Shown here in pieces: positions 3,682-30,919 of a stretch of DNA of 64,000 nt. This stretch comes from a virus. The stretch covers positions 47,606 through 111,605 of the IMG/VR virus record IMGVR_UViG_2974496990_000001; one strand, 5' to 3'. Position numbers and translations under genes: made by a program. The notes beneath the pieces are model-generated. The model was not told the DNA's origin. It saw only the letters and a program-made list of their open reading frames with translations, and did not search any database. Every line of letters begins with the position of its first letter. Within the stretch, counting starts at the first letter, position 1.

Positions 3682-3865
3682 CCATTAATGCTTCAACATC
3701 AGAACGGTAGATATTTGCTTCAGCAACTTCTTCGCCATCAAAAGAGGCTTTGATAGAAAGTGTACCAAACAAACTATCATAATCAACAGAAAGCTCGAGC
3801 TCTTCACGAAGAACACGTTTCACTTCGAGCTGAATAAGCTCTTTAATTTGTTCTACAGTAATCAT
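3674..3865 (-). CDS. Hypothetical protein
   Basis: 63-aa acidic ORF, ATGA overlap. Confidence 0.7.
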   Translation of the reverse strand: MITVEQIKELIQLEVKRVLREELELSVDYDSLFGTLSIKASFDGEEVAEANIYRSDVEALMGD

Positions 3866-4365
3866 TGATCGTCACCATTGTACATTTCTTCTTCATCGTA
3901 AACTTCAGGCTTACGTTCCATGATATAGTCATACGGGTCATCAATGTCCATACGTTGCCAGAATGTACCAAGTTGGATATTCTTAGGAGCATTGCTTTTA
4001 GAACCGGTGCAACGACCGATGTCACGACGTGAATACCGATGGTGTCCATTTTCATCCATAATGGTTTCATACGTCGTACGGCCCATGTTTTCAAGGTCTT
4101 TATATTTGACCATCTTGACCGTTTTGCCTTCCAGAGTTTCGTATGTCGCACCCGGAAGAAGCAGAGTTGGGTTACCGTCCAGTGAGTGAACCATCACAAT
4201 AACATCTTCGATGTTTTCGGCCGGATAAGCGATACCTACATTAACACCATGCTGATAAACCGCTTGGTATTGGTTTTCAGCAGAAATAACGGTCTTACGG
4301 AATTTATTGTCCCAAACACCATCAGTGAAGCGTTTGTATTTCAGTTCATAGCGAATCAGTTTCAT
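3862..4365 (-). CDS. Hypothetical protein
   Basis: Start moved to MKLIRY (GAGG SD). Confidence 0.7.
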   Translation of the reverse strand: MKLIRYELKYKRFTDGVWDNKFRKTVISAENQYQAVYQHGVNVGIAYPAENIEDVIVMVHSLDGNPTLLLPGATYETLEGKTVKMVKYKDLENMGRTTYETIMDENGHHRYSRRDIGRCTGSKSNAPKNIQLGTFWQRMDIDDPYDYIMERKPEVYDEEEMYNGDDQ

Positions 4366-4375
4366 AATATTTTCC

Positions 4376-27435: not shown

Positions 27436-27577
27436 TGTACGGAACGCCTGGATTCGAACCAGGTTACAGGGCAGTTGACGCTACACTGCATTTTGGATAA
27501 GGCCGTCAACGCATTTCCTCAACAGGAGCATCGTCAAATGCTTCATCCTGGAGAAAACTTGTCAAGTCCTCGAACCG
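27436..27577 (-). ncRNA. tRNA-like stable RNA (T4 RNA C / species 1-like)
   Basis: 5' CGGTTCGAGGA, internal GTAGCGTCAACT, 3' T-arm CCTGG-TTCGAAT-CCAGG; about 140 nt, like recalled T4 species 1 RNA. Confidence 0.75.
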
Positions 27578-28456: not shown

Positions 28457-28505
28457 TGGCAGGCGCTTGAGGAATCCACCGCTCTACCAACTGAGCTAAG
28501 CACCT
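28457..28505 (-). pseudogene. tRNA with a 27-nt internal deletion (probably derived from tRNA-Trp)
   Basis: AGGTGCT acceptor, intact D-arm, GTGGATT-CCTC, AGCGCCT-G-CCA; 49 nt; anticodon 3' arm and most of the T-arm missing. Confidence 0.75.
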
Positions 28506-28508
28506 AAT

Positions 28509-28584
28509 TGGGGTGACCTATGGGACTTGAACCCATGACTACAAGAATCACAATCTTGAATTCTACCAACTGAATTAAGGCCAC
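28509..28584 (-). tRNA. tRNA-His(GTG)
   Basis: Cloverleaf, anticodon GTG, C73, CCA. Confidence 0.93.
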
Positions 28585-29565: not shown

Positions 29566-29582
29566 ATTAACCTTAAAGCATA
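29556..29582 (-). promoter_or_regulatory. Putative middle promoter
   Basis: TATGCTTTA-N12-TAGAAT. Confidence 0.55.
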
Positions 29583-30028
29583 TTACGTTTTAAGTTTTCA
29601 CGAACTCGATAAAGATTTGAACAGAATTCCTGTTCAGTCAAAACAGTTTCGTTCTTTTTCGACTTACCCATCGAGTGAGTTAATGTAGCGTTCTGCGTAG
29701 CCAGGAGCGCTCTCTGGAACCCTTCATTCAAGGCTAATTGATTATATGCTCGTTCGATAAGAAGCGTATAGGCGTCACTCTGGCGTTGCATAGGCACACC
29801 TTTCCAGTATAATGTCTGGAGTCGCCACCAATTCTTTTTCTTACCTTTGAACTTAGCTTTCTTACCAACTAGAGTACAAACATGTTCCTGCATTTCTACT
29901 GAAGAAAATTTCAGTGATTGCAAAAAGCCTTCCATCGAAGCACATTGTACACCGTCAATTTCAAAAGCATGAGGTGCAAAGTTACTTAATGCAGATGAAG
30001 GATAACCTGCACCAGAACCGATGTCCAT
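29573..30028 (-). CDS. NADAR-family (gp30.3-like) ADP-ribosylhydrolase
   Basis: ALSNF..HAFEIDG...SMEGFLQSLK...LYWKG...THSMG...LTEQEF, similar to recalled T4 gp30.3. Confidence 0.8.
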   Translation of the reverse strand: MDIGSGAGYPSSALSNFAPHAFEIDGVQCASMEGFLQSLKFSSVEMQEHVCTLVGKKAKFKGKKKNWWRLQTLYWKGVPMQRQSDAYTLLIERAYNQLALNEGFQRALLATQNATLTHSMGKSKKNETVLTEQEFCSNLYRVRENLKRNML

Positions 30029-30269: not shown

Positions 30270-30379
30270 TCACAGCGGGGTGGATTCGAACCACCAATAT
30301 TAAGTCACTCATACACCAAGCATGCTAGGGCACTTACCCCGGACGGAATCGAACCGCATCTACAATACCTATCGCCGTG
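30270..30379 (-). ncRNA. tRNA-mimic RNA with two T-loop hairpins
   Basis: Acceptor CACGGCG/CGCTGTG, terminal T-arm GGTGG-TTCGAAT-CCACC, internal GCGG-TTCGATT-CCGT; no anticodon arm. Confidence 0.6.
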
Positions 30380-30381
30380 TC

Positions 30382-30458
30382 TGGTGGCCCCATCCGGACT
30401 TGAACCGGAAACCTACCAGTTATGAGCCGGGCGCTCTAACCAATTGAGCTATAGGGCC
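30382..30458 (-). tRNA. tRNA with CAT anticodon (Met, or more likely Ile2)
   Basis: Cloverleaf, CAT anticodon, GGCCCT acceptor, A73, CCA. Confidence 0.9.
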
Positions 30459-30919
30459 TGAATAATTTGTTTACCACGTTTAAATCTGAATGTGCTTGTC
30501 TGTGAATGACAATTCGGACATAATATCCTCAAATTAGAATACAAATGGTTTTTAGAATTACCATCAATATGGTCTAATTCACACTCTATAGGCTTAGAAT
30601 TCCATTCAGAAATTCCGCATTCTTCACATTCGTTCTTTTTAAGACCTTCAGAATACAATCGCTTTTTAAGTTTATACGATTGATATTGTGGATGAAGACC
30701 TTTCAAAATTTCATCAAGAGGTATTGTCTGTTTTGAATACTCAGACTTATCTCTTTTTATACCAGTTCGTCCTTTATTAGGTCGGTATAACCCATAATGA
30801 ACGGCATGTTGTTTAAATGTTCGGTGGTGGCATCCTATTAAAGAACAAGCTGCAGCCATAGAACAAGTAGAGTTTATAGCATGCTCTATTTCTTCTTTAC
30901 TATAAGTTAGTGTTTTCAT
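30449..30919 (-). CDS. HNH homing endonuclease with N-terminal HTH
   Basis: CEECG...ELDHIDG...NLRILCPNCHS. Confidence 0.9.
   Translation of the reverse strand: MKTLTYSKEEIEHAINSTCSMAAACSLIGCHHRTFKQHAVHYGLYRPNKGRTGIKRDKSEYSKQTIPLDEILKGLHPQYQSYKLKKRLYSEGLKKNECEECGISEWNSKPIECELDHIDGNSKNHLYSNLRILCPNCHSQTSTFRFKRGKQIIQAL

Follow-up and report, generated by a model that had tools for sequence, protein, structure and literature searches.

The window analysed here is a 64-kb stretch of a 177.6-kb virus record, the best matches of which were T4-like phages (Straboviridae, Tevenvirinae) of Enterobacter and Klebsiella. ARAGORN located a minus-strand tRNA cluster in it, comprising tRNAs Leu(UAA), Met/Ile2(CAT), Lys, Asn, His and Asp. 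The tRNA(CAT), which was recognized by both ARAGORN and Rfam and ends in an encoded CCA, occupies positions 30382-30458 and is followed, after the two spacer nucleotides GA, by the element described in this study, which runs on the same minus strand from 30379 down to 30270 (110 nt; nt i of the RNA is window position 30380-i). The surrounding tRNAs and ORFs have the same orientation, and a ribosome-binding site and a start codon lie within ~20 nt 3' of the element. Between tRNA-Leu and tRNA(CAT) there is a minus-strand ORF for an HNH endonuclease of 156 aa (30449-30919; Pfam HNH, 23.5 bits), the last 10 nt of which, including the stop codon, overlap the 5' end of the tRNA. This ORF is an insertion: the gap between the same two tRNAs is only 10-12 nt in Klebsiella phage KLB31 and phage IME523. 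A gp30.3-family NADAR-type gene (29573-30028, minus strand; Pfam Phage_30_3, 191 bits) was observed within the tRNA array, two genes 3' of the element; genes of this type are reported to serve as anti-DarTG1 counter-defence (PMC11825919). A weak match to the YrlA model (23 bits, E = 0.1) was also observed on the minus strand at 28480-28541, where it spans the 3' end of tRNA-His and a piece, UAGCUCAGUUGGUAGAGCG, that resembles a tRNA 5' half, was not called by ARAGORN and is probably a truncated tRNA-like unit.

The 110 bases that follow tRNA(CAT) are an intact, previously unannotated gene for a tRNA-shaped RNA that has no anticodon. Neither Rfam 15 nor ARAGORN called the element; at E values up to 10, its sole contact with the Rfam tRNA model (RF00005) was the 3' T-arm, with 12.5 bits against a gathering score of 29. 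It is annotated in none of the genome annotations that we looked at, has no Rfam family and is not described in the papers searched.

The two ends of the RNA form a 7-bp acceptor stem, with the 5' strand CACGGCG at 30373-30379 (nt 1-7) and the 3' strand CGCUGUG at 30271-30277 (nt 103-109), one of the pairs being G-U. The 3' strand is followed by a discriminator A (30270, nt 110) and then by ACU, with no CCA encoded. All seven acceptor pairs vary across homologues, five of them with changes on both sides, and the stem is kept in shape alone, its sequence being free. As discriminator, T4-like copies have A and N4-like copies have C or U. Next to the acceptor, the 5' linker AUAGGUAUUGUAGAU (30358-30372, nt 8-22) contains an invariant G11G12 (30369-30368) and a near-invariant GUAGAU, as judged by the columns of our alignment (A5). 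The context of G11G12 is WGGW, which resembles the core of a D-loop, and GUAGAU together with the T-arm after it corresponds to a common variable-loop/T-arm sequence of ordinary phage tRNAs (Met, Ser, Gly and Gln). This T-arm, the internal hairpin T1 (GCGG-UUCGAUU-CCGU; 30343-30357, nt 23-37), has a 4-bp stem and a canonical T-loop closed by G-C; the stem was paired in 100% of cases in 16 sequences, and pair 24-36 was C-G, G-C or U-A.

Two further hairpins follow. The variable hairpin H2 (GGGGU-AAGU-GCCCU; 30327-30340, nt 40-53) consists of a G-U, three G-C and a U-G pair. Its sequence and its length (14, 16, 18 and 19 nt) vary, four of its pairs change on both sides, the closing G-U at its base is conserved among aligned copies, and it is missing from a distant member of the family (L052:3572-3671). 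Hairpin H3 (CAUGC-UUGGU-GUAUG; 30310-30324, nt 56-70) has a 5-bp stem, paired in 100% of cases, and a 5-nt loop of the form YUGGW, whose GG likewise resembles a D-loop core. The innermost pair, 60-66, has become A-U in the Klebsiella N4-like clade, most copies having C-G; because it switches on both sides, the loop has five nucleotides and not seven. The 3' linker AGUGACUUAAUAUU (30296-30309, nt 71-84) contains an unpaired GACUUA (30306-30301) that is invariant in the A5 columns. It leads into the 3' T-arm T2 (GGUGG-UUCGAAU-CCACC; 30279-30295, nt 85-101), which has five base pairs and a canonical T-loop, was paired in 100% of cases with two pairs changing on both sides, and is the only part of the element that touched the Rfam tRNA model. 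A bulged C (30278, nt 102), invariant in 16 of the 16 aligned sequences and also kept in L052, separates the T2 stem from the 3' strand of the acceptor. Both T-loops and both GG motifs (G11G12 and that of the H3 loop) are invariant together.

A first-pass annotation of this locus, made before our analysis, had proposed a tRNA-like RNA without anticodon that starts 2 nt after the CCA of the CAT tRNA, with a 7-bp acceptor (one G-U, A discriminator, no CCA), a perfect terminal T-arm, a second T-loop arm near the 5' end and one extra nucleotide between T-stem and acceptor. All of these features were recovered here, and the lack of an anticodon is also borne out by the 5-nt H3 loop, as established by compensatory pair 60-66, and by the absence of a call by ARAGORN or Rfam. 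Its GGGGU/UGCCC hairpin does exist, but in another register (GGGGU pairs with GCCCU around AAGU), and its list of helices missed a fifth hairpin, H3.

To evaluate this structure, 31 pairs were tested in A5, which consists of 16 distinct homologous sequences. Standard pairs made up 97.3% of the pair cells, compared with 38-57% when the partners were slid by 1-3 columns. Fourteen of the 31 pairs changed on both sides yet stayed paired, so that the covariation among homologues that the first-pass annotation had called for was found, and none of 500 shuffles reached the observed values. RNAalifold, which was given no structure, independently recovered the same five helices. The single-sequence fold energy of the element was unremarkable against shuffles (z = -0.71). 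A covariance model (R1) built from the 16 homologues scored the element at 119.6 bits, the sole match in the 64 kb at E values up to 10, and identified the distant member in L052 with 50 bits (E = 3e-13), in which H2 is absent and the rest is kept. This comparative evidence is strong and shows a conserved fold of five helices, of which the variable H2 is dispensable. Relatives carry this same conserved unit; two intact tRNAs in its place, which the first-pass annotation had named as speaking against its reading, are not seen in them. A small ORF inside the element was also considered and rejected, as the different H2 lengths (14, 16, 18 and 19 nt) break any reading frame.

Additional pairing could be observed between the two linkers. 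In one register nt 11-14 pair with nt 81-84 (95% paired cells), and in the other nt 16-19 pair with the same nt 81-84 (86%); both comprise 3-4 bp, have one exception each and show no two-sided change. It is probable from the alignment that a short long-range helix closes the inner domain, with the two registers competing for nt 81-84. The first register would put G11G12 into pairs and would not leave this GG free. Three further candidates were checked by hand, and none was conserved between clades: UAG(18-20) with UUA(77-79), pairing of the 5' linker to nt 71-77, and a stem around CUUAAUA that resembles an anticodon stem. The order around the inner junction is a stem, a 'variable loop' GUAGA, a T-arm, a closed hairpin, two nucleotides and a D-like hairpin leading back to the stem. 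The same order is obtained from a tRNA cloverleaf by closing its acceptor and opening its anticodon stem onto the outer acceptor/T-arm minihelix.

The family was then characterized by a blastn search of the element against 50,697 phage records, in which every copy found was unannotated. Including all searches, 17 distinct homologues were obtained; they belong to four genera of T4-like phages, to N4-like phages of Gamaleyavirus and of a Klebsiella group, and to one viral contig of 95 kb that is unclassified. Full-length copies with 94.5-97.3% identity occur in Klebsiella phage KLB31 (Kanagawavirus), Citrobacter phage CkP1 (Karamvirus) and Escherichia phages VR5 and VR25 (both Dhakavirus), TH15 and TH22, as well as in TH40 (a Gaprivervirus). 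About 28 N4-like podophages of the genus Gamaleyavirus (for example, G7C, EC1-UPM, pSb-1, PhAPEC5 and PhAPEC7) have copies that are 76-82% identical over nt 17-103, and use of the G7C copy as query added two Klebsiella N4-like phages, JZBo1 and VLCpiP4a (the latter a Kaypoctavirus), at ~71-75% identity. Pattern scans of IMG/VR and metagenomes gave further copies from the same clades; those of metagenome and GTDB contigs yielded seven more Gamaleyavirus-like copies, two chance matches (L073 and L078) and no bacterial copy. No copy was found by pattern scan in 185,579 GTDB genomes, and blastn gave no match in 5,426 complete E. coli genomes or 72,556 plasmids. Among the public sequencing runs listed as matches none was of RNA, and the best of them contained at most 0.23 of the sampled words. 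The four public runs that we examined yielded only contigs, probably DNA, of related phages in wastewater and food metagenomes.

The position of the element differs between these phages. In T4-like phages all copies lie 3' of a CAT tRNA, with a spacer of 2 nt (window, KLB31, CkP1 and L014) or 17 nt (VR5 and TH40), and their similarity begins at the 5' end of the acceptor and ends at the discriminator. N4-like copies have no tRNA directly upstream, and in other phages the element is likewise found within tRNA clusters. The next 3' feature is an ORF in the window, KLB31 and CkP1, tRNA-Arg(UCU) in VR5 and non-coding DNA in G7C. Between N4-like and T4-like loci, the matching sequence is limited to the element and tRNA genes. 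The distribution is sporadic; for example, in IME523, a Kanagawavirus like KLB31, the slot is occupied by a tRNA-Arg and the element is absent. No linked protein gene travels with it: the downstream 73-aa ORF is not confined to carriers of the element, and no N4-like phage has it. HNH endonuclease genes adjoin the element in three unrelated contexts (window 30449-30919, G7C gp47.1 and L052:3833-4369). These patterns indicate that the element is a self-contained RNA gene with a family of its own, which has been moved horizontally among unrelated lytic phages of Enterobacteriaceae.

The distant member without H2 (L052:3572-3671, in IMGVR_UViG_3300020045_007300, the contig of 95 kb) is located 14 nt before a tRNA-Pro(UGG), with the HNH_3 ORF (3833-4369) beyond. 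This contig further codes for a polyvalent protein of >1,450 aa that includes an ART-PolyVal domain, and the carrier is therefore of a third phage type. Two observations were made on neighbouring tRNA genes in other carriers. In CkP1 (L002, MW239124.1; 797-1542), the CAT tRNA just upstream of the element is interrupted after the first base of its anticodon, with nt 1-35 at 797-831 and nt 36-77 at 1501-1542 on either side of a 669-nt insert that has an annotated ORF (876-1511). In VLCpiP4a (L036, ON602749.1), an Rfam tmRNA_permuted match at 578-799 (47.8 bits, gathering score 47) overlaps an unannotated tRNA at 561-632 in the tRNA cluster of the phage.

The best explanation, which we consider moderately probable, is that the element is an intact gene coding for a non-decoding tRNA mimic of ~110 nt; tRNA-like processing, a fold with two elbows and a decoy function are proposed for it, each at a strength of its own. 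With regard to processing, the element would be co-transcribed with the tRNA cluster, RNase P would cut its 5' end, and the 3'-trimming and CCA-adding enzymes of the host would finish its 3' end. Acceptor/T-arm minihelices are substrates of RNase P, and CCA-less T4 tRNAs are completed by host 3' trimming and the CCA-adding enzyme; because of this, tRNA-like excision and stabilization are probable, and by analogy with those T4 tRNAs we regard co-transcription and tRNA-type excision as likely. The location of the element 2 nt after a tRNA, among tRNAs and ORFs of the same orientation, and its occurrence in the tRNA clusters of other phages agree with such processing. On the other hand, the +1 nucleotide is C, U or A among the copies and not G, the nucleotide that E. 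coli RNase P prefers at this position, and the bulged C could disturb the acceptor/T-arm stack. Both T-loops could also be modified, since isolated T-arm hairpins suffice as substrates for TrmA and TruB.

With regard to folding, each T-loop would dock on one of the GG motifs, so that the RNA would be compact and have two elbows of the tRNA type. In tRNA, G18 and G19 dock on the T-loop, and on this analogy we put forward the two-elbow docking, the simplest three-dimensional reading, with some reserve, as a possibility that falls a little short of probable. It should be noted that the nucleotides on which this model is based are invariant, so that covariation cannot be seen for them. The inner domain, being the conserved part, is likely the business end of the RNA.

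With regard to function, the excised RNA would be a stable, trans-acting decoy or sponge that captures a host factor recognizing the elbow, the T-arm or the acceptor end of tRNAs and not their anticodon. Since all acceptor pairs differ between clades, as does the discriminator, a specific aminoacyl-tRNA synthetase is an unlikely client. Host tRNAs that defence nucleases have cut can be replaced by phage tRNAs, and phage tRNA clusters have been described as counter-defence loci (PMC11555353, PMC13096335); for T-even phages in particular, the tRNA regions have been reported to be anti-defence loci with a link to homing endonucleases (PMC13096335; PMC11555353). We prefer a decoy because of the sporadic, horizontal distribution of the element, its location in a counter-defence region and the association of this region with homing endonucleases. 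As its target, a tRNA-directed defence protein would come first and a tRNA-processing or tRNA-modifying enzyme second, and the decoy, as an anti-defence function, should itself be regarded as rather unlikely. A simple decoy does not explain the invariant single-stranded GACUUA. Combining these ideas, one could imagine a two-elbow mimic in which the acceptor/T-arm minihelix is a 'tRNA scaffold' carrying a circularly permuted tRNA-like core (stem, T-arm, closed 'acceptor' hairpin and D-like hairpin), traded by lytic phages of different families as an RNA-only counter-defence decoy for a tRNA-directed immunity protein; this combination is distinctly unlikely to hold in full. Modulation of tRNA-modifying or tRNA-processing enzymes is a further rival to the decoy.

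Several other interpretations were compared with that of a trans-acting mimic. First, the element might be a cis-acting processing or 'punctuation' element, whose shape recruits RNase P and 3' nucleases so that the 3' end of the upstream tRNA is finished and the downstream mRNA is freed, the excised RNA having no job of its own. Its location 2 nt after tRNA(CAT), with a ribosome-binding site and start codon within ~20 nt on the other side, agrees with such a role, as does an acceptor stem that is kept in shape only. However, the inner domain (T1, H3, the GG motifs, GUAGAU and GACUUA) is far more conserved than punctuation would need, and the neighbours are not constant: an ORF, a tRNA-Arg or non-coding DNA may lie 3', and N4-like copies lack a tRNA directly upstream. 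We therefore consider this role improbable.

Second, the RNA might bind the elbow of tRNAs instead of imitating it, if its T-loops interdigitate into a flat platform stacking against a genuine tRNA at its elbow, in line with the double T-loop platforms of which the first-pass annotation had been reminded. Interdigitated T-loop platforms of this kind are present in T-box stem I, the RNase P S-domain and the L1 stalk, and the occurrence of two canonical, invariant T-loops in one small RNA is compatible with such an arrangement. Nevertheless, both are 7-nt hairpin loops of the tRNA type, closed by G-C, and the two GG motifs of D-loop type show the same invariance, in keeping with a docking of T-loop and D-loop as in tRNA. 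The two GG motifs suggest that each T-loop would have its own D-loop-like partner rather than take part in a double T-loop platform, and an elbow-binding platform appears quite improbable.

Third, the element could be a divergent member of the T4 rnaC (species 1) family. T4 rnaC also ends in a T-arm, a single C, seven nucleotides and an A, and has ACUUAAUA before the T-arm, a word common to both RNAs. This word is absent from an unannotated rnaC-like gene in the window itself (~27438-27504, minus strand), and its sharing was rejected as chance. The latter gene is 77.6% identical to T4 rnaC over the 3' 67 nt, probably extends upstream, and has the 3' end CCUGG-UUCGAAU-CCAGG-C-GUUCCGU-A, that is, the same ending of T-arm, C, 7 nt and A. 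Against membership, separate rnaC homologues exist in the same genomes, as in the window and in VR25, which has the element together with rnaD and rnaC homologues; VR5 carries the element and an rnaD homologue (L003:1698-1814), which is located downstream of the element and tRNA-Arg and does not match the element. In addition, blastn gave no match between T4 rnaC or rnaD and the element, and R1 gave T4 rnaC only 16.9 bits, the level of ordinary tRNAs. Because rnaC and rnaD homologues co-occur with the element in the same genomes, it is a separate, third family, as the first-pass annotation had suggested, and membership in the rnaC family is very improbable.

Fourth, H3 could be imagined as the anticodon arm of an unusual, decoding tRNA-Pro(UGG) if pair 60-66 opens, when the loop CUUGGAG of KLB31 and VR5 would show U33, UGG and A37. 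But the two-sided change of this pair from C-G to A-U indicates a real pair and a 5-nt loop, 'position 37' is U in the window, and 'position 33' is C in JZBo1 (CUGGU) and L052 (UCUGGUG). Moreover, H3 is not flanked by a D-arm and a variable loop, a normal tRNA-Pro(UGG) is present 14 nt away in L052, and the unit is rejected by both ARAGORN and Rfam, all of which makes a decoding role highly improbable. Finally, the tRNA-like GUAGAU and T-arm sequence and the truncated tRNA-like piece near 28480-28541 might suggest decayed debris, a dead and functionless fusion of two tRNA 3' halves, but this is scarcely credible, because a pseudogene would not keep base pairing, whereas compensatory changes were found in five helices across phage families that otherwise share only tRNA sequence at these loci, and the independent RNAalifold and covariance-model searches speak against an alignment artefact. 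A fusion of two tRNA 3' halves, which the first-pass annotation had offered as one origin, is plausible as ancestry only, since the present unit is conserved as a whole; a tRNA ancestry of T1 is plausible because GUAGAU with the T-arm occurs in ordinary phage tRNAs.

At these loci, T4-like and N4-like carriers have nothing but the element and tRNA sequence in common, which speaks for a portable, host-directed function of the mimic. The family is short, strongly structured and free of a protein partner gene, and offers an easy experimental handle on the role of tRNA look-alikes in phages; if the two-elbow fold is true, it would represent a new way of building a tRNA mimic.

The element belongs among the phage-encoded tRNA-like stable RNAs, its own family being absent from Rfam. 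Its closest counterparts are T4 rnaC and rnaD (species 1 and species 2), which are likewise unexplained, non-decoding RNAs of ~110-140 nt that lie on the tRNA strand in T-even tRNA clusters; we know of no explanation for such non-tRNA RNAs of phage tRNA clusters since they were first described. In contrast to the element, no second canonical UUCGAUU-type T-loop or YUGGW hairpin could be seen in rnaC and rnaD, and neither of them was found in the N4-like phages in which the element occurs. YrlA (RF02553), of which the first-pass annotation had seen reminiscences, is also a non-coding RNA without anticodon and has a tRNA-like module made of a T-arm, a D-loop-like partner and an acceptor-like stem. 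In YrlA, however, the tRNA-like module lies inside the molecule, the 5' and 3' ends of which pair into a long stem that binds Ro/Rsr, whereas in the element it is the acceptor stem that the ends form; Rfam gave no match to YrlA within the element at E values up to 10, and a kinship is not supported. If the helix between nt 16-19 and nt 81-84 is adopted, the topology is that of the tRNA-like domain of tmRNA, with an acceptor, a stem-less GG linker in place of the D-arm, an enclosing long-range helix and a T-arm. The element differs from tmRNA in having no tag reading frame, no pseudoknots and only 110 nt, and in lacking the conserved G3-U70: the equivalent pair 3-70 is C-G, U-G, U-A, A-U or G-C in the family, never a conserved G-U, and ARAGORN and Rfam found no tmRNA at the element. 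With canonical tRNA (RF00005) it shares a 7-bp acceptor, a 5-bp T-stem, a UUCGAAU loop closed by G-C, a discriminator and a place in a tRNA operon, but it has no D-arm and no 7-nt anticodon loop, and has a second T-loop hairpin and an extra nucleotide between T-stem and acceptor. An acceptor and a T-arm of the tRNA type are both present and covarying in the element, but are parted by an invariant C.
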